Of a stretch of 64,000 bases of DNA, positions 13,440 to 64,000 are shown piece by piece. Source of the stretch: Mobula hypostoma (Eukaryota); assembly GCF_963921235.1 (NCBI RefSeq), contig NC_086108.1, forward strand, positions 31,498,001-31,562,000, in the 5' to 3' direction. Position 1 is the first letter of the stretch. Every line of letters starts with the position of its first letter. Under the pieces are notes generated by a model. That model made no database searches. It saw nothing but the letters and a program-made list of their open reading frames with translations, and had not been told where the DNA came from. A program made the translations under genes and the position numbers.

Positions 13440-14720
13440 AGCAGGAAAGACACTTGACAGGTTGCCATGTATGAAGCTGTGGCATAAAGTAAGAGCACAT
13501 GGTGTTGGAGGAAGCATTAGAATTGATTGAAAATTAGCTCCCAAATAGGAAGCAGAGAGTTGGATTAAGCAGGTTCTTTCCATATCTGATGGAAGTAACT
13601 ACGGGAGTACTACAGGGATCAGTTTTTGGTCCCCAGATGTTCCCTCTTTACATTAATGAGCTGGAGAAATGAACAATATGTGAAGTTTCCAAATTTGTTA
13701 ATGGTACGAAAATTGGTGGAAGGGCATATTGTGATAAAGATGCTGTGATCCTGCAATTGGATATAAATTGAGTGAGTGGGAAAATGGAACAATTGGGGAA
13801 GTCTGTGATTGTGCCCTTCGGTAAGAGAAATCAAAAGGGCAGATTATTAACTAAATAGATAGAGACTGCAAGTGAGTGAAATACAGGTGAATCTACTTCT
13901 TCGAGTGCATGATTCATAAGAAGCCAGTAATCAGGTCCAACAAGTAGTTAATGAGGCAAATAGCATTCTGGGTTTCATTGCAAGAAGATGGAGTTGAAAA
14001 ATAAGCAGGTTTTGTTGCAATTGTACAGGGTGTTGGTAAAACCTCGCCTGAAATACTAGGTACAGTTTTAGTCCCTTTGTCTGAAAGTAAATATAGTAAC
14101 ATAGGAGATCCACCAGGTTAATTCCTTCTCATCTTTCTTTCCAGTCCTGATGAAGGGTGGTGGCCTGAAGTGTCAACTGTTTACTCTTTTCCATAGATGC
14201 CTCCTGGCCTGCTGAGTTCCTCCAGCATTTTGTTGCTTGGATTTCCAGCATATGCAGACTTTCTCATGTTTGAAGTTAATTCCCGATATGAGAAGGTTGT
14301 CCTACCAAGAGAAACTAAATAATTTGTATCCCTTAGAATTTAGCAGAATGAGGAATGATCTTATTCAAAGATATAAGATCCTAAGAGGGCTTGACAGAGT
14401 AGACGGTGGGATGCTTTCACTAGTGGGAGAGTCTTGAACAGGATATAACTACAAATCATTGAAATGTCAATGAGGCTATTCATTGAAATGCGTTGAATGT
14501 CAGAATTTCTTCTCACAATTTTTGAAACCCTCTGCCCAGACAGATGGTGGAACCTGGACCATTTCAAATATTTAAAGTGGAGGTCGATATTAATTGACAG
14601 ATGAAAGAATAGAGGAATATGGAAAACTGGCACAGAAGAGGAGTTGAGGCCAGAGTAGATTGGAAATGTTAAATGGTGGGGCCTGTGTGTCCACTTTCTT
14701 ATCTTCTTGTGGCCGGTACG
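13440..14720 (+). mobile_element. Old CR1 remnant with a Penelope terminal-repeat fragment inserted (~14125-14272)
   Basis: Degenerate RT and C-terminal motifs (LEFSRMRNDLIQ-YKILRGLDRVD). Confidence 0.7.
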
Positions 14721-33599: not shown

Positions 33600-34585
33600 C
33601 CTCTTCTCACCCTGTCACATGCAAAAATGTTATTCCCCTCTCAGTTATTCCAATTCTGTGTGCATCTGTTCTCAGGATGAAACTTTCCATTCCAGGACAT
33701 CCAAGATATCCTTTTCTTTCAGAAAATAGGGCTCACCTTCCACCAATATTGATGCTGTCTTCACCAGTACCTTCTCCATTTCCCACACATTTGCCTGCAC
33801 CCCACCTCCTCCCCATTCTCACATAACGGGGGAAGAAAGATCTCCATCCCGGCACTTTCCCTGCAACCGTGACATGCATTTGGTGTTCCTCCTCTACATT
33901 GGTGAGATGTGACACAGATAGGGGAATTGTTTCATCGAGGGTCATCCACAACAGGGGTGTCTTCTACAATAGCCGGAATCTCCCAGTGACCACTCATTTT
34001 AATTCCACGTCCCATTCCCGCACTATCCATGGCCGTCTCTATTGTCATGATTAGGCCGAGCACAAACTGGAGGAGCAACACCTCATATTCATCTGGGTAG
34101 TCTCCAACCTGATGGCATGAATATTGGTTTTTCTAGATTCTGCTAACATCTTACTCCTATTCCCTTCGCCCTTTGTTTTTCCTCATTATGCTAGTCCATA
34201 TTCCCTTCTTTTCCCCTGCCCTGCAATCATGACCTGCCCATCACCTCCCTCTAGCTACTCACCTGCTTCCCTTTAGTCCATGGTCTAGCCCTCTCCTATC
34301 TGATCCGATTACTTCTTCTTCAGCCCTTTCCCTCTTCCACCAATCCTCTATCAGTTTCTTACATCATTCTCTTTCATCCCCTTCCCTCAACAATCTAGCT
34401 TCCCTCTCACCTGTATTCATCTGCAGGCTCTCCCTTCTCCCTCTTTTTATTCTGGCATCTGCCCCCCTTCCTTTCCAGTCCTGACAAAGGGTCCTTGCCC
34501 AAAACATTGACCATTCATCCTACCCTCCCTCAGATGGTGCCTGGCCTGCTGAATTCCTCCAGCATTATGTGTGTGCTGCTGAAGA
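33600..34585 (+). mobile_element. Penelope-like element fragment
   Basis: LPVTTHFNSTSH...LYCHD GIY-YIG tail, pyrimidine tract, terminal repeat. Confidence 0.8.
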
Positions 34586-34784
34586 TGTGTCTACATTGTC
34601 ACCGGCATAGAACAGACAAATAAACGAATGTGTCAACTTTAAGAAAGAGTTTGTGCTGGAACTTCTGAAAAGCAATAGAGTAGATAGGCAAACATGAGGA
34701 AATCTGCAAATGCTGGAATTTCAAGCAACACATAAAAATTGCTGGTGAACGCAGCAGGCCAGGCAGCATCTCTAGGAAGAGGTA

Positions 34785-34822
34785 CAGTCGACGTTTCGGG
34801 CTGAGACCCTTCGTCAGGACTA
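34785..34822 (-). ncRNA. Minimal type-I hammerhead ribozyme motif, intact core
   Basis: Minus strand TAGTC-CTGACGA-A-GGG tctcag CCC-GAAAC-GTC-GACTG. Confidence 0.7.
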
Positions 34823-35598
34823 AATGAAAGGATAGTAAGAGAATTGGAAGTGAGAGGGGGAGGGGGAGGGGAAGGGGGAGATCCAAAATGATAGAAGACA
34901 GGAGGGAGAGGGATGGAATTAAGAGCTGGACAGGTGATTGGCAAAAGGGATATGAGAGGATCATGGGACGGGAGGCCTAGGGAGAAAGAAAGGGGGAGGG
35001 GGGAAGCCCATAGGATGGGCAAGGAGTATAATGAGACGGACAGAGGGAGAAAAAGGAGAGAGGGGAAAATATATATATATAATAATGATAAATAAATAAA
35101 TAACGGATGGGGTACAAAGGGGAGGTGGGGCATTAATGGAAGTTAGAGAAGTCAATGTTCATGCCATCAGGTTGGAGGCTATCCAGACAGAATATAAGGT
35201 GTTGTTCCTCCAACCTGAGTGTGGCTTCGTCTTTACAGTAGAGGAGGCTGTGGATAGACATATCAGAATGGGAATGGGACGTGGAATTAAAATGCGTGGC
35301 CACTGGGAGATCCTGCTGTCTCTGGCGGACAGAGCGTAGGTGTTCAGTGAAACGGTCTCCCAGCCTGCGTCGGGTCTCGCCAATATATAGAAGGCTGCAT
35401 CGGAAGCCCATCCTCTGGGCTTCCCCCCTCCCCTTTTCTTTCTCCCTAGGCCTCCCGTCCCATGATCCTCTCATATCCCTTTTGCCAATCAACTGTCCAG
35501 CTCTTAGCTCCATCCTTCCCCCTCCTGTCTTCTCCTATCATTTCGGATCTCCCCCTCCCCCTCCCACTTTCAAATCTCTTACTATCTCTTCTTTCAGT

Positions 35599-35636
35599 TA
35601 GTCCTGACGAAGGGTCTTGGCCCGAAACGTCGACTG
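35599..35636 (+). ncRNA. Minimal type-I hammerhead ribozyme motif, intact core
   Basis: TAGTC-CTGACGA-A-GGG tcttgg CCC-GAAAC-GTC-GACTG. Confidence 0.7.
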
Positions 35637-35662
35637 TACCTCTTCCTAGAGAATAGATAGGC

Positions 35663-36905
35663 TCCTGGGGCCAAATGGGATATACTCCCAGCTACTACCG
35701 GAAACAAGGGAAGTGATTGCTGCAACTTTAACAGTAACCTTTGCATCATCACTGACCATGGAGTGGTCCAGAAGACTGGAAGGTGGCAAACGTTATTCCT
35801 TTGTTCAAAAAAGGTAATAGGGATAATCCTGGGAATTATAGACCAGTAAGTCTGACGTCAGTGGTGGGTAAACTACTGGATCCAGGGAAAATTGGCTGTG
35901 AGTCAGAATTGGCTTGCCCACAGAAAGTAGAGAGTGGCAGTACTCTGCTAGGAGATCTGTGACTAACGGTGTTCTGCAGGAATTTATTCTGGGCTCCCTG
36001 TTCTTTGTGACTATTATAAATGACTTGGTTGAGCAAGTGGATTAGTAAGTTTAAAGATGACATGAAGGCTGGTTGTGCTGTGGATAGTGTAGAAGGTTAT
36101 TGTAGGTTACAATGGGACATTCATAGAACATAGAGCTTGGCCAAGAAATGGCAGATGGAGTTCATTCAAGATTGAACATTAAGGCAAAAGTAAGGTTTAC
36201 TAGCAGTGTGGAGAAACAGAGGGGTCTTGGAGACCACATCGATTGATCCCTCTGCAGTTGCCTCACAATTTGATAAGGTAAGTAAGAATCGATATGGTGT
36301 GTTGACCTTCATCAGTTGATGAATTGAGTTAAAGACTGCAAAGTAATGCAGCAGCTCTTTAAAACTCTGGTCAGACCACATTTGGAGTATTGTGTTGCCT
36401 CAGTATAGGAAGGAAGTGGAATCTTTAGAGAAGGTGGAGAGGAGATTTCCTAGGATGCTGCCTGGATTACAGAGCATATTTTCTGAGGAAAGATTGAGCT
36501 AGCTAGGGTTTTCTCGCATTCGAATGAAGGAGGATGAGAGGCAACTTAATATAGAGACATGGATAAAGGAATAGCCAGCTCTTTTTTTTCCCAGGGTGGC
36601 ACTGGCTGATATGAGAGGGCATACTTTTAAGGTGATTGGAGAAAATTATGGTGGGCGGGGGAAGAGGAGGAATCAGAGGTAGGTTTTGTTTACACAGAGA
36701 GTGTTAGGTGCATGGAATGTACTGCCAGGAGTGGTGGTAGAAGCTGATATGTTAAGGAGATTTAAGAAACATTTAGATAGGCACATGGATGAAAGAAAAA
36801 TATGGTTGTGTGGGAGGGATTGCTCTTAGAGTAAGTTAGAAGGTCAACACAACGTTGTGAGCCAACGGGCCTGTACTGTCTGGACTGTTCCGTGTTCTAT
36901 GTTCT
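35663..36905 (+). mobile_element. CR1 LINE, decayed with internal deletion
   Basis: [26 protein letters not shown] and FTQRV motifs; GTTCTAT tail. Confidence 0.85.
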
Positions 36906-37447: not shown

Positions 37448-39052
37448 CAGTGGTCCCAAACCACTGGGCCACAAAGCATGTGCTACCGGGCCACAAGGAA
37501 ACGATACGATTTGGTGACATGAAACGATATGAGTCAGCTTCACCTTTCCTCATTCCCTGTCATGCCCACTGTTGAACTTTAACGCACGCGAGGTCATCAG
37601 TGACCCAAGACGCAAATGACCCAAGGCGTGCAAAGGAATGGGTCCGTGACCCATTTGTGAGTGTCCCCAGTGAATCATCCATGTCAGCACGGGAAAAAGA
37701 TCAACTCCTCCAGCTTGCAAATGACAGTGGGCTGAAAAGTATGTTTGACGTAACATCTCAGCCGGCATTCTGGATCAAAGTCAAGGCTGAATATCCTGAA
37801 ATAGCCACGAAAGCACTGAAAACGTTACTTCCATTTCCAACATCATATTGCTGCAAAGCGGAGTTTTCTGCAATGATTGCAACGAAAACTAAATTGCGGT
37901 ATAGGCTAGACATAAGGAACCCCCTTCGAGTATCGCTGTCTCCCGTCACCCCTCGATGGGACCATCTTGTTGCAGGGAAACAAGCCCAGGACTCCCACTG
38001 ATTGAGTGATATTGATGTGTTGCAAAGATTTTATATGTTCATACGAGGAAAATATGCGCTGTGTGTTTAATATCCAAATGTAAGGGTTTCTTCTTTTATG
38101 TTACTGCTAAGGAGAATAAAATGGCTTCTCTGTACTGTTAACTGCTGAGACAGTGGTTCTCTATAGCAGTATGTTTGGATTATAATTAGTGATAACGAGA
38201 CTTGTGTTCATTTGTTAACCAATTGGGATAGATGTTACTCTTTCTGTCCGTGAGAAAGCTGTTAGCTGCGTGGGCTTTGGAGAGAAGGCGCAAAGAGGAT
38301 GAAGAGAGAAGAGGTGGCTTGAGGAGATGGTTGCCGGACCGGCTGGGCCTGGGCTCGGGGCGGGAGCCCAGGGGTCGATGACGAGTGAAGGAGGATCAAC
38401 GACAGGGAATCCGACAGCTCCAACGTTTGTGCACTGGACATGTTTATGAGATTATTGGCGCCTTTTATTTGTTTTCCCTTTCTTTTGGTCTCTACTAACC
38501 CCATACTTAAATATAAAACCTTAATCGTTTAACCGCACATTGTGGACTGAATGTTATTTCGAGGTACTGATGTTACACAGGGGACACAACACACAGCATC
38601 CACCCAAACTTGATTACCCAGTTTGGCGGGGCTGAAGGCTGCTCTCCCCAGCTGGAAGCGAGCTGAGCGAGCCTGAGGCTTACCAGGGGGCTACACAAAC
38701 GTTACTTAAAATGTTATGATGCTATTGACTTATAAGTGACTTAAAATTCAGTGGTCGCCACCCTCCGGGCTGCGGACCGATACATTGCCGTAAAGAATGC
38801 AGCGGTACAGCAGTAACCGGAACACACCCATACACCTTTAAGAAAAAAGCCGAAATAAACAATCTAATTAATTAGCTGCCACCCGACACGTAAATGTCGG
38901 CCCAGATCAGAGGCGATTGCCGACTTATAGTTGACTTATCACCTATATTCCGGTCGTGATTAACAACCCCACCCCCACCCTGGTCGGCCGGTCCGCAAGA
39001 ATATTGTCAATATTAAACCGGTCTGCGGTGCAAAAAAGATTGGGGACTCTTG
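37448..39052 (+). mobile_element. hAT (Charlie-type) DNA transposon, internally deleted
   Basis: TIR-like ends CAGTGGTCCC / GGGGACTCTTG; dimerisation domain FWIKVKAEYPEIATKALKTLLPFPTSY-C-A-FSAM-ATKTKLR...KQAQDSH (37600..38001). Confidence 0.88.
38079..38695. mobile_element. Solo LTR nested in the hAT
   Basis: TGTAAG...CTACA termini; 4-bp TSD CAAA at 38075-38078 and 38696-38699. Confidence 0.8.
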
Positions 39053-40206: not shown

Positions 40207-40610
40207 CTAAAGCTTATGTAATCCGAAAAAAGTGTGAAACTGATCAAAATTAACTAATTCTGGATTTGACACATTCACTAATATACGATCGCCTTTGGAT
40301 AATTTAAATACTCCTGTTTGAAAACTATTTCTTGACCACAAATTTTCCTTCTCAGCACAGTGCAAGTTGCTACTGACAGTCATTAGACGAAGAGCTACTG
40401 GATAGCGATCAGTTCGCTTGAGCACATTCTGTTGCAGCACTGTGTCTGGTTTGCATTCTGTGCCTCGGAAGTAGATTTTGGAGTAAATTAAGAAGTAGCC
40501 AGCTTCGCTAATGATCAACGAACCTTCTTTGTAATGTAAGCCACTTGTGAAGGCATTGTCCTTATTGGCATCCCATAGGAGTGTGCTTGAACTCTTGGCG
40601 GAGTACATTC
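40207..40610 (-). CDS. TNFSF ligand exon 4 (TNF homology domain)
   Basis: Acceptor ctcttatttgaag|GA; ORF 40207..40608 ends TFFGLHKL-stop. Confidence 0.95.
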
Positions 40611-43600
40611 CTTCAAATAAGAGATTGCAAATAAAGTATTACGGGCAGAAAGCAAATAGGACATATTGTCATGAGAAATTGAAAATGCATTTCATTTCCC
40701 AAACAAGAGAAAATCTGCAAATGTTGGAAATCCAAGCAACACACACACACAAAATGCTGGAGGAATGGGTCAAAACGGGCCGAAATGTTGACTGCAATTT
40801 TTTCCATAGATGCTGCCTGGTCTACTGAGTTCCTTTTTCCTAACAAAACTAATATGAAAATTGTCCTTTTCTTAGCATGATTCTTATGGTAAAATAACAG
40901 GAATTGAAATACGATGTTGGAAAGTGTATGATTATGCACTTTGGCAGAAGAAATAAACGGGCAGTCTACTATTTAAATGGGGAGAGAATTCAAAGCTCTG
41001 AGATGCAACGGGACTTGGGAGTCCTCATGCAGGATACACTTAAGGTTAACCTCCAGGTTGAGTCGGTGGTGAAGAAGGTGAATGCAATGTTGGCATTCAT
41101 TTCTAGAGGAATAGAGTATAGGAGCAGGGATGTGATGTTGAGGCTCTATAAGGCGCTGGCGAGACCTCACTTGGAGTACTGTGTGCAGTTTTGGTCTCCT
41201 TATTTAAGAAAGGATGTGCTGACGTTGGAGAGGGTACAGAGAAGATTCAGTAGAATGATTCCAGAATTAGAGGATTAACATATGAGGAACGTTTGTCCAC
41301 TCTTGGACTGTATTCCTTGGAGTTTAGAAGAATGAGGGGGGATCTCATAGAAACATTTTGAATGTTGAAAGGCATGGACAGAGTGGATGTGGCAAAGTTG
41401 TTTCCCATGATGGGGGAGTCTAGTACGAGAGGGCATGACTTAAGGATTGAAGGGCGCCCATTCAGAACAGGGATGTGAAATTTTTTAGCCAGAAGGTGGT
41501 GAATCTATGGAATTTGTTGCCACGGGCAGCAGCGGAGGCCAAGTCATTGGGTGTATTTAAGGCAGAGATTGATAGGTATCTGAGTAGCCAGGGCATCAAA
41601 GGTTATGGTGAGAAGGCAGGGGAGTGGGACTAAATGGGAGAGTGGATCAGCTTATGATAAAATGGCGGCGCATACTCGATGGGCTGAATGGCCAACTTCT
41701 GCTCCTTTGTCTTATGGTCTTATGGTCTTATTGTGTTGTGTTCCTTCAATTTTACTGTTACAAGTTTATTAAATGTCCTTTTCCCCCTCTGTCTCATTTT
41801 AATAATGTTAAACGTGCTCTCCTATATATAATTCTTTAGATTTGGTTTCTCACCTAAAACACTCAAAAACTTCTACAGATGTACCATGGAGACCATTGTG
41901 ACTGGCTGCATCATCATCTGCTATGGGGGTGGGAGTGTTGCTACTGCACAGGATTGAAGTAAGCTGCAGAAAGTTGTAACATTAGTCTCCCTCATCATGG
42001 GGACTAGCCTCTACAGTATCCAAGACATCTTTAAGGAACAGTGTCTCAAGAAGGCAGCGTCCATCATTAAGGACCCCCACCATGCAGGATATACCCTCTT
42101 CTCATTGTTACCATCAGATAGGAGGTACAGAAGCTTGAAGGCACACACTCAGTGATCAAGAACAGCTTCTTCCCCTCTGCCATCCAACTTCTAAATGAAC
42201 ACTGAACCCATGAATATTTTTTATTTTATTTAACCTCACTACATTTTTTATTTATTTCTGGTTTTGCAATGCTTATTTTAACTTAAATATTTAATAAACA
42301 TATGAATAATTACTATAATTCAATTTTTTCTATATTTATCATGTATTGCATTGTACTGTTGTTGCAAAGTGGACAAGTTTCACGACATATACCGGTGATA
42401 TTAAACTCGATTTTTGATGTGACAAGGCCTCTACCAATCTTAACAAGAAAATTGTTCTTTTTCTCCCTGAGAGGATGGGCACAATGTTAAGCAGGCAAAC
42501 AGAGCAGCCATTTTACAACACTGTGTCGGCTGCCAAACCGGGGATTAATGAATAATCAGCTTTTTTCTGGTTTGATCCTCCTTTGGTAGCCACCTCTATT
42601 GCATTTGAATCACCAGAGTAGGTGACCAGAGACTTTGTTTGTCTCATCTGAAAACAGACGCCTCAGTATTACTTACCGAGGACACAGCTTCTCAGTGTTA
42701 TATAATATCCACTGTCAGAATGATAAGCTGAATCCCTTCACACCACTCCCATAATTTTACAATCAAAAGGCACCTCCACTAATGATACAACTTTATTTCT
42801 GCCCCTTTGCAGCTGGGATGTCATGTTGCAACTGAACAAGACCAGACATCAAATATTGATCTCCCAGCTATAAGACTGAATATAAGCTGGGCAGGGTGCA
42901 AAGATTTATGAGGACATTATCAGAACTAGAGGACTTGAGTTATAAGGAGAGATTGGATAGACTGGGACATATTTGCCTGAAGTATCGGAGGCAGAAAGGT
43001 GACTTTATCAAAACACATAAAATCACAAGAGGTCTAGATAAAATGGATGGTCAGAGTCTTTTTCTAAAACTAGAGGACGTGGATTTGAGGTGAGGGGGGA
43101 AAGATTTAAAAGAAACTTGAGGAGAAACTTTTCAACGTAAAGGCAATGGGTATGTGGAACAAGTTGCAAGAGGAAGTTAACAAGCATTGGTAAAGACATT
43201 TAGACAGGTATGTGAATAGAAAAGAGTTTAGAGGGATTTTTGCCAAATACAGGAAAATGTGATTATCTTGGATAGACAACGGGGGCAGTAAGGACAATGT
43301 GGGCCTGTTTCCGTGCAGTATAATTATGGTTCTTTTTTTAAAAATCTTCTTTGATTTGAACTTCCATGCGATATTTTATCCCAATTTCTTTCCACCAACC
43401 CCAAACATGTACCCAGGCAAATCACTAACCTGTGAGGTGTGCAGCAACCGTGGTCTGTTTCTTAACAATTGGAGCTCCTATAAAGAAATATCAGAGTTAG
43501 AGGCAGAAGAATACAAGCACATGTCTACAGAATCTCTATATTCTCAGTAAAAGAAAATCTCTTCTGGTGAGACAAGAAAAATTGCTACAGATGAGGAGCA

Positions 43601-44357
43601 TTTCAAATTGAAATTGAAAGTTACTTTCAATGTGAGTTCCATTCTCACATTGATTAAAATAAAAGGTGAACTAAATGCTCAGGCTGTTCCTGCTTCATTC
43701 AGTTCATTTTGAAACTTGTGTATAGTATTCATATGTATAGTAACTTTACCTGTAGAATCATGTTATATTTCTACACATCTTTCAATATCACTTTGCATCC
43801 AAATCAGTTCACATTAGCTTTCTCCTTGTTGTATCTTGAAATGTGTGTGCATTATCAGGTTTTAGAAGTAATAACATTATGGGTAACAGGTTCTCATAGA
43901 TCAACTTATTTGCTGCCAGACTTTGAAATAACGATACTTAGGTATGAAGTTCTGTTTATACATGAAATTTAAAGCATTTTTCTACTCACCAACCATCTTT
44001 GCTTGTGAGCTTTGCTCTTCTTGATCCTGATAATAAAGAAGAAAAAGATTGCTTTCAAATTCTGGTTTTAAGTCAATTAAATTTGTCTTTCAGTTTTACA
44101 ATAAAAGAAGAATGAACCTTTTGGATTTTCTTGAATTCCATTCTGAGCTCTATGATGTAGATTGTTCCAAGTAGCAGACATGCCAATATTACTAACGTCA
44201 GGATCAGAATGACAACAGTACACACTTTCTGCCAGTCCCTCGTTGGCTTCTTTTGCCTTGGTGCAATTGCCGGGCGCATTGTGCCCATGGGATTACGAGA
44301 AAGATTCAGGTTTGTCCCCACAGTGTAAACCTGTGGTCGTCGGTAATCAGCCTCCAT
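40207..44357 (-). CDS. FASLG: TNF superfamily type II membrane ligand, Fas ligand-like (alternative: TNFSF14/LIGHT-like); join(44357..44118,44026..43990,43477..43430,40610..40207), 242 aa
   Basis: Exons of 240+37+48+404 nt = 729 nt splice in frame with GT-AG introns (phases 0,1,1). Cytoplasmic N-terminus, TM helix VCTVVILILTLVILACLLLGTIYII, stalk, then TNF homology domain AAHLTG...LLW...YSKIYFRGTEC...RYP...WSRNSF...VFKL...VNVSNPELVNFDQFHTFFGLHKL. The C-terminus resembles FasL most; orthology needs a phylogeny. Confidence 0.85.
40701..40833. mobile_element. Short inverted Penelope terminal-repeat remnant in intron 3
   Basis: Minus-oriented piece followed by a plus-oriented piece of the same repeat. 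Confidence 0.7.
40903..41730 (+). mobile_element. CR1 LINE 3' end in intron 3
   Basis: ARPHLEYCVQFWSP; (TCTTATGG)n tail. Confidence 0.92.
41853..42420 (+). mobile_element. Rex1/Babar-type LINE 3' end in intron 3
   Basis: Similar to the reverse complement of 22766-23320. Confidence 0.85.
42810..43330 (+). mobile_element. Old CR1 3' fragment in intron 3
   Basis: LEDLSYKERLDRLG...GDFI-THKITRGLDK. Confidence 0.75.
43430..43477 (-). CDS. TNFSF ligand exon 3 (GAPIVKKQTTVAAHLT)
   Basis: Acceptor tttctttatag|GAG, donor CAG|gttagt; encodes the AAHLT strand-A motif; 48 nt. Confidence 0.9.
43990..44026 (-). CDS. TNFSF ligand exon 2 (stalk, DQEEQSSQAKMV)
   Basis: Acceptor ttctttattatcag|GAT, donor TTG|gtgagt; 37 nt keeps frame; 91-bp intron 1. 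Confidence 0.85.
44118..44357 (-). CDS. TNFSF ligand exon 1 (cytoplasmic tail + transmembrane helix, 80 aa)
   Basis: ATG at 44357 in CCAATGG context; MEADYRRPQVYTV...TM...EFKKIQK; donor AAG|gttcat. Confidence 0.9.
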
Positions 44358-44498
44358 TGGCAGTTTCGTATCTAAAGTGCAGTTAGCAGCCTTCTATATG
44401 TGGTCCTTCTAATTTGGTACAGTATTCATGCATTAGACCAATGTCGAAACAATTCACTGGGTCTCCGTCTCTCGTGCAACTGCTGTGTCACTCTGTGT

Positions 44499-47330: not shown

Positions 47331-48255
47331 GTTCTCTAACAAATGACTCTGCTCTCTTCAACTGATCAATATGTTTTCTCCAGGTGACATCAAACATCAT
47401 CTCCACTATGCTGGAGAGTGGTCCAGTTCTGTCCTTAGATCTTTCGAAGGACTCACTTTTGATCATCTCTGTCATCCCTCACCAGCACTGCTTGTTTAGG
47501 AGTGAAACATTGAATCTTTTTGTTTGAGGAGCTTCCATTTCAGGGCCCCAAACAGTCCTTCCAAGTGAGACAACACTTCACCTGTGAATCTTGTTTGTTG
47601 TGTCTGATGCTCTCAATGTGGCCTCATCTGCATCAGTGAGATCCGTCATAAATTGAGGAAACTGATTCACTGAGCACCTCAGCTCCATTAACCCTAAGTG
47701 GAACTTCCTAGTAGCCAAACAGTTTAATTCTGATTCCCAATCCTGTTCCAACATGTCAGTCCACAGCCCCCTCTTGTGCCAAGTCGAGGCCAGCCTCAGG
47801 GTTGAGGAGCAACACCTTATATTTCATCAGGGTGGCCATCAAATTGATAACATGAATATTGACTTCTCCTTCCAGTAAAATGCTTTTCCCTCCCCCTCCC
47901 CTCTTCTTCTATTCCCCACTCTGGCCTTTTACCTCTTCTCACCTACTTATCACTTTCTCCGGGTCCCCTCCTCCTTCCCTTTCTGCTATGGTCCACTCTC
48001 CTCTCCTATCAGATTCCTTTTCTCGAACCCTTTACCTTTCCCACCCACTTAGCTTCACCTGTCACCTTCTACCTATCCCCCTTCCCCTCCCCACTTTTTT
48101 TTATTCTGGAGTCTTCCACCTTCCTTTTCGGTCCTGAAGAAGGGTCTCAGTCTGGAATTTATATATTTCCACAGATGCTGCCTGACCTGTTGTGTTCTTC
48201 CGGCATTTTGTGTGTTTTGTTTTGGATTTGCAGCATCTGCAGAATTTCTCTTGTT
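47330..48255 (+). mobile_element. Penelope-like element fragment
   Basis: FQGPKQSFQVRQHFTCES...FTEHL...EEQHLIF; terminal repeat. Confidence 0.8.
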
Positions 48256-49140
48256 TTCATTTTGTTTCAGCTGTTTGTCCTGCCTACTCTTGAAACTGGG
48301 CTTAGTAGATCCAAGTGTGAGCACAAGGGATGACCCAGGAAAGCAATGCTGGTAGGTTGTTGGTTGTGGAGTGTGCTGCACTGTGATATCAAGGAGGAAA
48401 TTGTTGGGCTTCTGATTCAGTGTTAGTGTAATAAGTTCCACTGACAGCGTGTTCTTTAGACTCTGGACAAACCTTTCCACCAAGCCACTTGTAGCTGGTT
48501 GGTACGGTGCAGATGTAATATGTCTTATTCCATTCATTTTCTGGAATGACTGAAACTGTTCTACAATAGATTGTGGTCTATTGTCATCGACTAAGTTTTC
48601 TGGAACACCAGTCCTTGTGAAGGGGCTTCTAACATATCAAAGATATGTAAAACTGTAGTAGAGGCGAATGGGAACACATCTGCCCACTTTGTAGCTGAAT
48701 CCACTGCTACCAAGAAATTTGTGCCAATGAGTGATCTGGCAAAATCCACATGAATCATTTGCAGGCCATTCCCAGAGATGGAGAAGCATCTTCCAGACTG
48801 TTGCCACCCCAATCAGTGCACAGCAAGCTGCTCGATCTGCTGATCTATCCCAGTCGACTAGAGCCAACACTTTCATTTTGACGACGCCTAGATGACCGGC
48901 ATGTAGCTCCTCCAACACTTCAGCTCTCAGCTTGCATGGTGCAACAACGCTCCATCCCACGTACAGCAAGCCCCATCAAGGACAATTGCATTCTGACAGT
49001 AGTAAAAATGAAGGAAACAGGAATTTCCACTGCACATTCCAGCTATGCTGGGTGGCCATGCAGACCTGAGACAGTGTGGAGCCTTTTTCTGGTTTCCCTT
49101 TGGATCATCCCTGCCATATGCATGAGGGAGAATATGTCAA
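48256..49140 (-). mobile_element. Gypsy-type integrase remnant
   Basis: LRAEVLEELHAGHLGVVKMK, IHVDFA...FLVAVDS-TKW, NGIRHITSAPYQPATSGLVERFVQSLK. Confidence 0.85.
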
Positions 49141-49321
49141 GAACATACTTGAATCACAGAGGGCACTTGAACATTCCAATACATAAAAGCATACTCACAT
49201 CTCAACATTTAACCTCCTCGATTATAGATCCCTCAATACCCTCACCCAACAGATGACCATCAGTCTCAGTCTGGAATGCTGCACGTCTGCTAGCATCAAC
49301 AACAACTTGCATCCATATATG

Positions 49322-57089: not shown

Positions 57090-60000
57090 TGTTACAAGAC
57101 ACACCCAACCACTTCAGCTTCCGGAATTTAGATGCTCTAACTCTCTGGAGTATGGCTAGCTGGCGTGACCCTTTTAAAAGTTCAGAATGGTCCCACTAAT
57201 TGGCAATCGTGTTTTGGGCACCAAGAATGGTGTATTTAAAGAGCACCTGAATGGAGATTTGGTACTCAATCATAAGCCTAACTAGTAATATGATCTAGTG
57301 TTTGTTTTGTGTTCATTTCTCCATTCTGTCTGATACCGTGTCTCGATCCTTGCTTCGGATTCTCCAGCATTTGGGTCCAAACCATCCATGCTAAGGACTC
57401 TTATCACAGGAAGGTTGAGCCGTTATAGACCTAGCAGGGTATCAGAGTCTATCATCCGCTGTGAGCAGCTACAGCAAGAGAATTTTCAGACGGAGCCTGG
57501 AGATTCACGACCTCTTGTCAACTTTCACAAGAAGGAAGTCAGAGATGATCAGAAGAGCCAGTGAGTCGGTTTGCAGACTCAGTACCTCTTTCAACCCCAG
57601 AGAGATTCGACAGTGGCCTGGGTTCTTGCCGCAGCTTCCTCATCAAATGCGCGTTGATGTTTGAACTCCAGCAGGTCCGGTTCCCTTTGGAACGCGGAAA
57701 GGAGGCCTTCTGACTGTAAGAGTCCTAGCCTAGGCCGCCGAGCATTGGGAACGTAGGTCAGAGATTTGCTCGGATTTGGAGGAATTCATGGCCATCTTGT
57801 GGAAGATGTTCCACTGCACCACCAGAGCCAGCCAAGCCTAGGACCGCCTGATGAAGACTCAACGTGGCAGAAGGTCAGCGACCAACTACGTGACCGAATA
57901 TCGGACCTTGGCCCAACAGGGTGGCTGGTACGGGCAGGCCTTGGCGACTCCATACCGTCATGGACTCTGAGATGGACTGAAGGATGCCCTCGACTTGGGA
58001 GAGCCAACAGAGAACAGAGGTTCTGGTGCGCCAGTCCCTTCATCTCAATAATCACCTGGTAGAGTGAAACTGGGACTACTTCAAGGCGGATCCGAGCCCG
58101 GTCCCAACACATTATTGTTCCACTCCCCAACCTCGGACCGTGACCAGCCCATCTCCTGCTCAACATCCTGTCAAGCTCATGCAGGTCGGTTCTCCGCCAA
58201 TAAGAGGTCCCGACATTGGAGTCAACGCTGCTGTTATTACTGCGGGGAAGCAGGTCACCTGCGGGCCGAATGTCCCAGGCTGAAGCCATCAGGAAAACTG
58301 CTAAGACCATCCAGTGTCAGAAGGACTGTGACAGTACAGCCACTACTCCCAATCCCACGGATTTTAATTTCGTGCCAAAGGCAGCGTTCACCAGAGGCAG
58401 ATAAAGGGTGTTGTGGACTCTGAGGCAGCAGGTAAGCTTCTGGACTTAGGAACTACCCATCGGCTCACCATACCGCTGCGAGAGTTGAGCGAGTCCATTC
58501 CCACAACTGTCTCAGACAGCTGCTCACTTGGTTCTGGGCAATTTCAGCAACAGACTGGTTTTGCAGATGAGGATAGGGGATCATGTGGAAGACATTAGTT
58601 TCTACTTTATTGACTCTCCACTCATACCCCTGATCCTCACGTACCATTCTCTGTCCTAACATAATCCATCCGTGGACTGGAGGGAGGGGAGAATCATTGC
58701 TTGGTCCAGTCATTGTAAGAGGGTTTGTTTGTGGCGTTGTGCTCTGACCCCCAGACTCTTCCAAAACCAACGACCAACAAGAGGGTGGCCTTCAGTCCGA
58801 GGTAACCTAACCTGAGGCCTCCTAGAGACTAGTCCTGTCCTCAAGGACAGCCAAGCTGGACCTGGCCAAAAGGACTGGGCATGTCCCAACTGTCTAGTCA
58901 GGAACTAGAGAGAGGGAATCTGGAAGACCTGCAGCTAAGCCGAAGGGATCCAGCCGCCAGGTCTCGGGGAAAGGAAAAACTCCTATCACAGATCTTTGAA
59001 GCTTATCCCGGGGGGGGGCAGGGGGGGCGTGGGGTGGGGTGTATTAACAAGGGCCATCTGTAATGCCTTGCTGCTGTTGCCTAAGGATACAGATGGGGAT
59101 TTGGACTCGGATTTGGCCATTGTTTCTGCAAATGATTTCAGTGAACCTAGGGAGGGGTCTAAGGTCCATCAAATCATTCCTGCCACCTGAGATGCCTCAG
59201 GAGATGTCCTTGAAGGAATGTCCGGAGGAGATAGCAACACCCAAACCCATTAAGATCCTTTCCGTCTACAGGGACTTGGTGGAGATCTTCAGCAAGGGAA
59301 AGGCCTCGACCCCTCCACCGCACTGACCCTATGACTGTGCTATAGACCTGCAGCCTGGTACTTGTCGATTGTATGCCCTCTCAGGCCCAGAGAGAAGCAC
59401 AATGAAAGTATATAAAGGAGGTTTCTTGCCATGGGCTTTATTCAGCCCTCCACCTCACCAGCTGACGCAGGCTTCATCTTCGTACGAAAGAAAGATAAGA
59501 GCCTGCAGTCATGTGTTGATTATGGGGAATTAAGCTGCATAACAGCCATGAATCGTTACCCCCTTCAACACATGAATATGGCCTCCAAGATGCTCCAACG
59601 AGAGAGAGTATTCACAAAGCTAGACCTGCAGAGTGCATACAATCGGGTCCGTATAAAGGACGGTGATGAGTGGAAAACCACATTCAATACACCGACAGGG
59701 CATTATGAGTACCTGGTTATGCCCTTTGGTCTTGTGAAAACTCCAGCAATCTTTCAGGCCTTTACCAATGACATGTTCTGGGATACACTCCATAAGTATG
59801 CCTTCACCTACTTTGATGATATCTTCTCAAGGTCCATGAAGGAGCACATCTTTCATTTCAGGCATATCTTACGGACACTTCTAGACCATGGACTTTACAA
59901 TAAGCTGGAGAGGTCCGAATTTCACGCAACAGCCATTCCATTTTTGGGTTTCATCATCTCCAATGGCAAACTCAAGATGGACCTTACCAAGACCCAGACA

Positions 60001-61120
60001 GTCAGAGACTGGCCACAACTATCCAGTGTCAAACAAGTCCAATGATTCCTGGCATTTGCAAACTTCTATTGAGGCTTCAGCATGATGGCGCTAATGAAGA
60101 AATCCACGGGCCCTTATGTCTGGACTACTGAAGCAGAGGCTGCTTTTGAAGCGCTTGAACAGCGGTTCACATCAGCTCCCATCTTGGCTTCTCCTAACCC
60201 AGACCTTCCCTTCATCGTGAAGGTGGAAACCTCCCACATCAGAGTGAGTGCAGTGATGTCTCAACTATCACCTTCGGACAGTAAACTGCACCCGTGTGCC
60301 TTCTTCTCCAGGCAGCTATCCCCAGCTGAGAGAAACTATGGCATCAGCAGTTGGGAGCTTCTTGTGGTTACGTTAGCTTTGGAAGAATAGTGTTACTGGC
60401 TAGAGAAGAGCAAGAGCCCTTTTATCGTTTGGACTGACCAAAGAACCTGGCTTATATTCAGGCGTCCAAGAGGCGGAATTCCAGGTTGGCCAGGTGGGCT
60501 TCATTCTTTAACTGCTTTACTTTCATCCTGACCTATCGACAGGGGTCAAAGAACCAGAAGCCGTTTGCCTTGTCCCATCAAGTTTGACCAAGCCAAAGTG
60601 GTAGCGTCAATTCATTGGGGAATCGAAGCTCTTGTTCACAAGGCCAAGTGCAAGGGCACATTCCTGAGAATAGTTCTCCGGGTCAGCTGTTTGTCCCAAG
60701 TTCTGTCCAGTCCCAAGTGTTCCAACAGGGACATTCACCAAGAATGACCACTCACCCAGGGAATGCCAGGACCCTCCAGTTTATCAAAAGGCGGTAGTGG
60801 TGGCCTGAAATGACAAAAGAGGTTCAGCAGTACGTCCAGGCATGCAAGGTGTGTGCCCGAAACAAGGAGCCCCGAACCTGACCTCAAGGGCTCCTCCACC
60901 CCCTACCTGTTCCGGAAAGATCATGGGCGCATGTCTCCATGAACTTTGTCATGGGTCTACCGTCATCCAAGGGAAAGATAGTATGGTAGTTGTCAATTGG
61001 TTTTCAAAAGCTTGCCTTGCAGAAGCTACCATCTGCAGTGAAAATGGCCAAAATTGTCCTGGATCAGGTCTCCAGGATCCACAGATTCCCGGAGAATATT
61101 TTCTCGGGGATTGTGGTCCA
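57090..61120 (+). mobile_element. Ty3/Gypsy (Sushi-like) LTR retrotransposon, decayed, cut in the integrase by a CR1
   Basis: Putative 5' LTR 57090-57408 (TG...CA); Gag CYYCGEAGHLRAECP; protease VDSEAAG; RT 59431..60045 (LDLQSAYN...GHYEYLVMPFGL...YFDDI); RNase H PCAFFSRQLSPAERNY; integrase HPG...WWP...CKVC. Confidence 0.9.
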
Positions 61121-64000
61121 CAAGATGAATTTAGGGAGTTAGGAGGTAAACTAAAATGTAGGACCACAAAGGTAATAATCTCTGGACTACTACCAGTGCC
61201 ACGTGCGAGTCAGAGTAGAAATAGGAGGATATATCAGATGAATGCGTGGCTTGAAAAATGGTGCAAGGGGGAGGGATTCAAATTTCTGGGGCATTGGAAC
61301 CAGATCTGGAGGAGGTGGGACCGGTACAAACAGGACGGTCTGCACTTGGGCTGGACTGGAAGCAATGTAATAGGGGGACCATTTGCTACTGTTGTTCAGG
61401 AGGATTTAAACTAATGTGGCAGGGGGATGGGAACAAGTGCGGAGAGACGGAGGGGTGTAAAATGAGGGTAGAAGCAAAAAGTGGTAAGGTGAAAAGTAAA
61501 AGTGGCAGGCCGGCAAATCCAGGGCAAAAATCAAAAACGGCCACTTTTCAACATAATTGTATAAGGGCTAAGAGTGTTGTAAAAGCAAGCCTGAAGGTTT
61601 TGTGTGTCAATGCAAGGAGCATTCGTAACAAGGTGGATGAATTGAAAGTGCAGATTGTTATTAATGAATATGATATAGTTGGGATCACAGAGACATGGCT
61701 CCAGAGTGACCAAGGATAGGAGCTCAACATTCAGGGATATTCAATATTCAGGAGGGATAGACATGAAAGAAAAGTAGGTAGGGTAGCATTACTGGTTAGA
61801 GAGGAGATTAACGCAATAGAAAGGAAGGACATTAGCAGGGAGGATGTGGAATCGATATGGGTAGAGCTGCATAACACTAAGGGGCATAAAACGCTGGTGG
61901 GAGTTGTGTACAGGCCACCTAACAGTAGTAGTGAGGTTGGGGATGGTATTAAACAGGAAATTAGAAATGCGTGAAATAAAGGAACAGCAGTTATAATGGG
62001 TGACTTCAATCTACATATAGATTGGGTGAACCAAGTTGGTAAGGGTGCTGAGGAAGAGGATTTCTTGGAATGTATGCGGGATGGTTTCCTGAACCAACAT
62101 GTCGAGGAACCAACTAGAGAGCAGGCCATTCTAGACTGGATATTGAGCAATGAGGAAGGGTTCATTAGCAATCTAGTCGTGAGAGGCCCCTTGGGTAAGA
62201 GTGACCATAATATGGTGGAATTCATCATTAAGATGGAGAGTGACATAGTTAATTCCGAAACAAAGGTTCTGAACTTAAATAAGGGTAACTTTGAAGGTAT
62301 GAGATGTGAATTAGCTAAGACAGATTGGCAAATGATACTTAAAGGGTTGATGGTGGATATGCAATGGCAAGCATTTAAAGATCGCATGGATGAACTGTAA
62401 CAATTGTTCATCCCAGTCTGGCAAAAGAATAAACCAGGGAGGGTAGTGCACCCGTGTCTGACAAGGGAAATTAGGGATAGTATCAATTTCAAAGAAGAAA
62501 CATACAATTTAGCCAGAAAAAGCGGCTCACCTGAGGACTGGGAGAAATTCAGAGGAGGACAAAGGGCTTAATTAGGAAAGGCAAAACGATTATGAGAGAA
62601 AACTGGCAGGGAACATAAAAACTGACTGTAAAAGCTTTTATAGATATGTGAAAAGAAAAAGATTGGTTAAGTCAAATGTAGGTCCCTTACAGTCAGAAAC
62701 AGGTGAATTGATCATGGGGAACAAGGACATGGCAGACCAATTGAATAACTACTTTGGTTCTGTCTTCACTAAGGAGGACATAATTAATCTTCTGGAAATA
62801 GTAGGGGACCGAGGGTCTAGTGAGATGGAGGAAATGAGGGAAATACATGTTAGTAGGGAAGTGGTGTTAGGTAAATTGAAGGGATTAAAGGCAGATAAAT
62901 CCCCAAGGCCAGATGGTCTGCATCTCAGAGTGCTTAAGGAAGTAGCCCAAGAAATAGTGGATGCATAAGTGATAATTTTTCAGAACTCTTTAGATTCTGG
63001 ACTAGTTCCTGAGGATTGGGGGGTGGCTAATGTAACCCCGCTTTTTAAAAAGGGAAGGAGAGAGAAACCAGGGGATTATAGACCAGTTAGCCTGACATCG
63101 GTGGTGGGGAAAATGCTGGAGTCAGTTATCAAAGATGTGATAATAGCACATTTGGAAAGCGATGAAATCATCGGACAAAGTCAGCATGGATTTGTGAAAG
63201 GAAGATCATGTCTGACGAATCTCATAGAATTTTTTGAGGATGTAACTCGTAGAGTGGATAGGGGAGAACCAGTGGATGTGGTATATTTGGATTTTCAAAA
63301 GGCTTTTGACAAGGTCCCACACAGGAGATTAGTGTGCAAACTTAAAGCACACGGTATTGGGGGTATGGTATTGATGTGGATAGAGAATTGTTCGGCAGAC
63401 AGGAAGCAAAGAGTGGGAATAAACGGGACCTTTTCAGAATGGCAGGCAGTGACTAGTGGGGTACTGCAAGGCTCAGTGCTGGGACCCCAGTTGTTTACAA
63501 TATATATTAATGACTTAGATGAGGGAGTTAAATGTAGCATCTCCAAGTTTGCGGATGACACAAAGCTGAGTGGCAGTGTTAGCTGTGAAGAGGATGCTAA
63601 GAGGATGCCGGGTTACTTGGATAGGTTAGGTGAGTGGGCAAATTCATGGCAGATGCAATTTAATGTGGATAAATGTGAAGTTATCCACTTTGGTGGCAAA
63701 AACAGGAAAACAGATTATTATCTGAATGGTGGCCGATTAGGAAAAGGGGAGGTGCAACGAGACCTGGGTGTCATTATACACCAGTCATTGAAAGTGGGCT
63801 TGCAGGTACAGCAGGCGGTGAAAAAGGCGAATGGTATGCTGGCATTCATAGCAAGAGGATTCGAGTACAGGAGCAGGGAGGTACTACTGCAGTTGTACAA
63901 GGCCTTGGTGAGACCACACCTGGAGTATTGTGTGCAGTTTTGGTCCCCTAATCTGAGGAAAGACATTCTTGCCATAGAGGGAGTACAAAGAAGGTTCACC
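61121..64000 (+). mobile_element. Long CR1 LINE: ORF1 SGNH-esterase C-terminus plus ORF2 (APE endonuclease + RT) with stops; runs off the window
   Basis: VIISGLLPVP...DGLHL; NARSIRNK, ITETWL, MGDFN, LGKSDHN, QHGF, QGSVLGP, FADDTK. Confidence 0.95.

Follow-up and report, generated by a model that had tools for sequence, protein, structure and literature searches.

A truncated, probably Neptune-type Penelope-like insertion in Mobula hypostoma with two inverted minimal hammerhead motifs, most likely silent at this locus

EN+ Penelope-like elements (PLEs) insert with an adjacent inverted 5'-truncated copy and carry a tail of 30-40 bp (PMC8557442). Their 9-bp target-site duplications (TSDs) and the palindromes at the inverted junctions were read as self-priming (PMC3846280). 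Minimal hammerhead ribozymes (min-HHRs) are known from metazoan PLEs, where dual copies may lie on opposite strands 100-700 bp apart, and they showed no cleavage as monomers and low cleavage as dimers (PMC4209133). In PAc, a Poseidon element of Anolis, cleavage by the hammerhead depended on the PLE protein, and insertion did not require the ribozyme (PMC11167929). Non-LTR retrozymes were reported from one chondrichthyan genome (bioRxiv 10.64898/2026.07.22.740005). These accounts, and the comparisons made with them below, refer to the accessible parts of each source.

One insertion in a window of Mobula hypostoma DNA (the whole stretch analysed, 64 kb) was compared with these systems, and the coordinates of its features and surroundings are listed in Table 1. 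With a probability of about 0.88, the locus goes back to a very high-copy Penelope-like retrotransposon of the Neptune type, of which it holds a 5'-truncated, non-autonomous copy; its inverted end would have originated by fold-back, and its ribozymes would be a by-product, most likely silent here. A C-terminal GIY-YIG domain, a hammerhead in the pLTR, an inverted 5'-truncated neighbour copy and an optional tail are common to this locus and to the Neptune-clade EN+ PLEs (PMC8557442), whereas the copy studied here is without RT and without an upstream direct pLTR. Like the non-LTR retrozymes, the family is PLE-derived and hammerhead-bearing (bioRxiv 10.64898/2026.07.22.740005), but retrozymes are head-to-tail tandem units, and the two copies here are inverted and could not form a dimer in cis. 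Identity with a non-LTR retrozyme was ruled out since the copies are inverted and not tandem.

Table 1. Positions of the insertion, its parts and the neighbouring features in the 64-kb window
Feature	Position	Strand	Remarks
Whole insertion, 964 bp	34690..35653	-	5'-truncated Penelope-like body on minus strand plus inverted end copy
Left target-site duplication TAGATAGGC	34681..34689	+	Final base possibly doubles as the element's terminal G (family copies end TGTTTG)
Right target-site duplication TAGATAGGC	35654..35662	+	9 bp
Host target, decayed CR1-like LINE split by the insertion	34600..36900	+	Approximate limits
GIY-YIG endonuclease, C-terminal fragment	35133..35402	-	89 codons 35402-35136, then stop
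Left arm: pyrimidine-rich 3' region and pLTR part of body	34769..35020	-	
Right arm: inverted copy of 3' region	35406..35652	+	Non-standard end, 79 nt short of the body's end
Body 3' end, 79 nt	34690..34768	-	Missing from inverted arm; optional tail of the family in the last ~33 nt
Palindrome at inversion junction	35402..35424	.	9-bp stem, 5-nt loop; inner 5 bp of stem native to pLTR
Minimal type I hammerhead, minus copy	34785..34822	-	C3 at 34817; predicted cut between 34790 and 34789; 40.5 bits
Minimal type I hammerhead, plus copy	35599..35636	+	C3 at 35604; predicted cut between 35631 and 35632; 38.7 bits
Last coding exon of TNF-family ligand	40207..40638	-	PF00229 E 3e-29; nearest solved structure FasL/TNFSF6 (E 5e-26; LIGHT 6e-18)
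First AATAAA past TNF-family stop	38464..38469	-	2.8 kb before element
Second AATAAA	35983..35988	-	

A preliminary description of the window had reported an element of about 960 bp bounded by a TSD, and indeed 964 bp lie between two 9-bp copies of TAGATAGGC. The left limit given there (34690) was correct, while the right one (35652) falls one base short of the true end at 35653. Translated separately, the two flanks belong to a single CR1-like frame in which the TSD codons are common (..LLKSNRV-DR / DR-LLGPNGIY), and this frame was compared with DKSPGPDGMHP in another copy within the window. Since the frame of the flanking LINE is continuous across one TSD copy, the 964 bp represent a clean insertion into an older, CR1-like LINE. 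The target described for EN+ PLEs is a (TA)n repeat, in contrast to the LINE found here. An empty-site joint was absent among the 15 of 1,321 joints listed, which proves nothing.

On the minus strand, the body runs from 89 C-terminal GIY-YIG codons through a stop and a pyrimidine-rich tract to the hammerhead and the tail. Two inverted terminal repeats of about 250 bp had been proposed; inverted arms of 250 bp were found (227 of 240 aligned letters identical, with 19 gap letters in addition), but the left one begins 79 nt inside the element, so the repeats are not terminal on both sides. The tail is present on the body only, and both 3' ends of the element face outward to a TSD. Relative to the body, the inverted arm lacks 79 nt, compared with 30-40 in EN+ PLEs. 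Among eight other copies in the window, five end at or beside TGTTT(G) and two about 30-40 nt earlier, and these two family end positions about 30-40 nt apart correspond to the known PLE tail. PAc likewise has a pLTR hammerhead ahead of a tail set by two RT start sites (PMC11167929). Inverted repeats were present in six of the seven examined related loci that bear an antisense motif, and three loci (L002, L035 and L045) have the same layout with two intact inverted motifs, indicating that the inverted motif pair is a routine product of transposition, with which the accessible text of PMC8557442 agrees.

The endonuclease fragment holds only the domain from the YIG half onward, and its match to Pfam PF01541 (E 0.013, 16.2 bits) was below the cut-off of 22.6. 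It is 90% identical over 99% of its 89 aa to P0001, a Mobula hypostoma protein (E 3e-43), and 77-84% identical to four Hypanus sabinus proteins (28 matches among 92 candidates); one homolog, P0021, scored above the Pfam GIY-YIG cut-off. The GIY-YIG fragment that had been noticed between the repeats is thus confirmed by its identity to P0001 despite the low Pfam score. The homologs are composed of RT motifs, a C-x3/4-C-x2-C linker and a C-terminal endonuclease. RT is missing in the truncated copy, and the RT motif YIDD was identified in P0001, P0004, P0014 and P0021. The CX2-5CxxC linker, whose region lies outside the insertion, was found in P0001, P0002, P0003, P0007 and in distant homologs, and it is shared with the Neptune clade by the homologs that are 78-90% identical to the fragment (PMC8557442). 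As far as that paper is accessible, Neptune and Nematis are with the linker and Penelope and Poseidon without it, so Neptune-type is the best label. Judged from the linker in the homologs, the clade is more likely Neptune than Penelope or Poseidon. Assignment to Poseidon was dropped, as the homologs have the linker and Poseidon is without the linker Zn finger; in this the Poseidon element PAc differs from the family here. Of the initial naming as a Penelope element, the Penelope-like identity and the inverted 5' repeat stand, as in print, and the clade is likelier to be Neptune than Penelope/Poseidon.

Both motifs read TAGTC-CTGACGA-A-GGGT[4]GCCC-GAAA-CGTC-GACTG and, in the usual hammerhead numbering, both have an intact CUGANGA / GAAA / NUH core, G10.1-C11.1, the extra nucleotide and the palindromic 15.2-16.2. 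C3 of the minus motif lies about 315 nt beyond the endonuclease stop, on the sense strand and in the pLTR. Stem I (TAGTC/GACTG), the CTGACGA...GAAA core, the extra A, ACGT and the GTC triplet had all been noticed before and are present in both motifs. Stem II had been given as GGG/CCC with 3 bp; actually it comprises 4 bp (GGGT/GCCC), one of them U-G, closed by a loop of 4 nt. A helix I of 4-5 bp, the extra nucleotide between 9 and 10.1, G10.1-C11.1 and a palindromic 15.2-16.2 without loop 3 are all found in metazoan PLE min-HHRs as well, whereas helix II, with 4 bp here, has 7-8 bp in the Schistosoma min-HHRs (PMC4209133). For six terms, no cartilaginous-fish name was found in two supplementary files of PMC4209133. 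No description of a batoid PLE hammerhead was found either in the accessible literature.

A strict descriptor gave exactly two matches in the window and none in 200 dinucleotide shuffles. Model search for a type I hammerhead had been proposed as a check, and the covariance model CM R1, which was built from 17 non-window motifs of distant relatives, found both motifs and ranked the two arms first, with the scores given in Table 1 (E about 1e-8, as rough E-values); the next matches were decayed copies at 49320 (19.4 bits) and 19532 (15.4 bits). With Rfam, no hammerhead was obtained in the window at E<=10 and only two chance matches appeared; we infer that the Rfam hammerhead models require stem III and hence give no match. 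An exact scan with a degenerate motif gave 0 matches in viral contigs and 0 in metagenome contigs, and none of the 17 candidates from a protein scan of viral contigs was confirmed.

For the family as a whole, at least 484 relatives were obtained among the 600 pattern matches listed, and the best 80 loci were kept (35-50% protein identity). A core-only search with no demand on stems gave 46 matches in these best 80 loci, compared with 2.24 in 50 shuffles. Stem I of at least 3 bp was possible in 34 of the 46, against one when slid by one and none when slid by two. By the strict descriptor, a sense motif lay 109-160 nt past the endonuclease in nine of the 55 loci with enough downstream DNA, with no antisense motif there. 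Covariation was counted in 20 rows (17 hand-picked equal-length motifs of the 46 and three window rows, one of them mis-registered): 22 cells had a two-sided change versus 6.1+-2.1, a count that is inflated because the rows are related and that none of 500 shuffles reached, and the three inner pairs of stem I carried the signal. Within the 13 window copies alone, covariation was not above shuffles (67/500). The covariation in stems I and II that had been named as a check is therefore seen across families, at the inner stem I pairs, but not among the 13 window copies.

These comparisons argue that the motif is a real hammerhead at the family level. It may well be functional there, in that it would be selected in active elements, and tandem same-strand copies could dimerise, probably with the help of the element protein. 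There is almost no chance that the locus is a fold-back DNA transposon (MITE) or that the motif is fortuitous: long inverted repeats and a TSD would suit a MITE, but the repeats are non-terminal at the left (79-nt overhang) and the interior is a PLE endonuclease, and a chance motif is at odds with the 0 descriptor matches in 200 shuffles and with the cross-family covariation. A related element (L003:120-166) has a longer stem II and, at its 5' end, the palindrome in reversed form (AGCT), with a long RT frame following after about 90 nt.

The 9-bp TSD and the palindrome at the inverted junction are like those of the EN+ PLEs (PMC3846280), and the inverted end may have been formed by fold-back of the new strand. 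The GIY-YIG endonuclease of the element would have nicked both strands 9 nt apart, and the element RT would have copied the RNA inward from the tail, stalling in the endonuclease region. At the small pLTR palindrome a template switch would have taken place, with the RT copying its own new strand back into a second arm, and the end of this arm would then have been linked to the target DNA. Both ribozyme motifs would be a by-product of the arm duplication. The right arm ends beside target-like letters, TAGAG being found within 2 nt before both duplications, which is one event and a lead only.

The arms could also come from two separate target-primed reverse transcriptions, one per nicked strand, that were joined mid-element by microhomology, which would give the same element and the same inertness. 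The purified PAc protein cuts both strands and extends them, and a dimer was modelled for it (PMC11167929); the outward direction of both 3' ends to the TSD would fit such an origin. The right arm, however, falls 79 nt short of the long family end and about 46 nt short of the other, so that it does not stop at a usual RT start, and the palindrome sits exactly at the junction. In addition, the arms share CpG states at 34970/35456 that are absent from most family contigs, as expected for one template, although also for one subfamily. Two priming events are thus rather doubtful, and fold-back of the new strand is favoured over them by about two to one. The inverted architecture of such copies is already published; what the family adds is a batoid Neptune-type minimal hammerhead, apparently undescribed, and the single locus matters little. 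The huge copy number would allow a genome-wide look at fold-back at pLTR palindromes as a source of inverted arms.

The fate of the ribozymes at the locus was predicted with nearest-neighbour energies, in which Mg2+, proteins and kinetics are ignored. In the predicted folds, the antisense arm takes up the sense motif by pairing (p 0.999 on the plus and 0.947 on the minus strand), also in nascent RNA ending just past the motif, and whichever the direction, the antisense arm precedes the sense motif in the transcript. The predicted hairpin has 242-249 long-range pairs with a longest perfect stack of 57-76 bp, and forcing the hammerhead scaffold would cost 67 (+) and 63 (-) kcal/mol. By these energies the hairpin should outcompete the ribozyme, and the motif is most likely silent at the locus, since RNA across the element would fold as a hairpin of about 245 bp that buries the sense ribozyme. 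A transcript in either direction had been expected to carry a ribozyme and to form a long dsRNA; each of these is true separately but not together, because the long stem swallows the motif and the ribozyme and the hairpin are mutually exclusive. The only two intact motifs of the 64 kb sit on opposite strands and are mutually antisense, so no active dimer could form between them, and the near same-strand copy at 34476 (+) has a decayed core.

The isolated motif favours a rod, with the core GACG pairing with the cut-site CGUC (-12.9 kcal/mol), and the computed energy of a double hammerhead is -16.7 kcal/mol versus -25.8 for two rods. RNA initiated within the element would avoid the hairpin, yet it would fold mostly into the inactive rod (p about 0.8). 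In relatives, at least four core bases were paired in the rod in five of eight motifs; such recurrence gives no evidence of selection, since the rod is partly built into any CUGAYGA...ACGUC motif. The rod pairing is a possible reason why minimal hammerheads need protein help, and the huge copy number of the family would also allow a genome-wide look at whether the rod between core and cleavage site is an off state to be opened by the PLE protein. The rod option (core GAYG with cut-site CGUC) is open to most of the minimal hammerheads among L001, L013, L016 and the window arms.

The preliminary description had placed the minus motif about 5.4 kb downstream of the stop of a TNFSF gene, in its sense orientation, and 5,390 nt were counted from the stop to C3. 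Variant poly(A)-signal hexamers also occur between the TNF-family stop and the element, nearer the stop. Considering these and the AATAAA at 38469, the FasL-like mRNA probably stops short of the element by at least 2.8 kb. The link between the element and the TNFSF gene is weak and is one of proximity alone. In a Pfam search of 120 non-repeat frames (1-45,200), no other host gene was found, though short exons would be missed. A stretch at 44076-44393 (-) that encodes a type II membrane anchor is probably the first exon of the TNF-family gene. It is without an obvious long proline-rich tail, which we take to be a feature of mammalian FasL. A 135-bp miniature fold-back copy of the family lies at 40701-40835, within the gene's last intron and some 60 nt away from the exon frame, with the tail at its left and a broken motif plus 3' part at its right.

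The hairpin itself might have a role if FasL-like read-through or another promoter supplied it, in that the RNA would be edited or diced and would help to silence the family, with the ribozymes idle. The 242-249 predicted pairs would provide the substrate, and Penelope siRNAs match inverted regions in transformed Drosophila (PMC3681739), so that such a dsRNA role would be of a known kind. It is nonetheless unlikely here: the AATAAA at 38469 and the variant hexamers intervene between stop and element, the 120 frames contain no other Pfam-detectable gene, and one locus adds little among many family copies. Run X15 (guessed RNA) contained 13,558 family contigs; its eight listed pieces cover no junction and one unique flank bin is depthless, so it has no bearing on expression.

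It was also considered whether the minus ribozyme has been co-opted to cut FasL-like read-through as a back-up terminator, with both cores kept by selection. Its sense orientation 5.39 kb past the stop would be suitable, and all eight core and stem CpGs are intact in the two motifs, whereas decay has affected the loop CpG of either arm and five CpGs of the endonuclease part (Fisher p 0.04-0.09). This CpG test is post hoc at a locus picked for intactness among very many copies, and its ancestral states come from 40 of 163 differences, one of which lies in a motif (35618, loop II), too small a share for a measure of core conservation. At the two junctions, contigs of a second organism (X5) extend into the element by 19 and 29 letters, below the 31-letter rule and so only a hint of a shared insertion. 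Against co-option, the mismatch rate between the arms is no lower inside the motif (2/38) than outside (11/202; p=1), the motif is sequestered by the antisense arm, a same-strand intact partner is absent nearby, and min-HHR monomers showed no cleavage and dimers low cleavage only (PMC4209133). Co-option is therefore very improbable. Equally remote is its fuller form, in which the cores are selected and the minus ribozyme, refolded by protein from the rod or hairpin, would be a conditional FasL-like read-through terminator with an antisense off-switch, common to at least two batoid species.

The family is very high-copy, and the probably silent insertion described here is one of very many copies. 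The ribozyme-tail module had 14 nhmmer matches in the 64-kb window, most of them decayed. In three runs from three organisms, 192,074 (run X1), 118,548 and 90,855 contigs matched a 1.8-kb stretch, to which the CR1 and the older neighbour contribute. The summed depth of run X1 was in the millions over the element versus 36-45 in two unique flank bins, which is not a copy number.

Some further remains were observed around the insertion. An older family copy at 33978-34580 (+), immediately left of the insertion and opposite to the body, is about 70-76% alike with a decayed core, and it gives further inverted pairing with the endonuclease fragment. Short family copies at 14133, 19536 and 49319 (+) match from a few bases upstream of the hammerhead to the tail. 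A frame starting from the core ACG (34814-34690, minus strand) is open for 41 codons to the element end, where older copies have ATG; this may be the start of a family ORF. The frame at 37576-38001 (+) resembles the C-terminal part of a hAT-type transposase and had no Pfam match at E<=1. Stop-broken Gypsy-like gag/pol remnants, with a zinc knuckle, RT, RNase H and an integrase-like part, were recognized by eye at 57750-61400 and 48073-48975.
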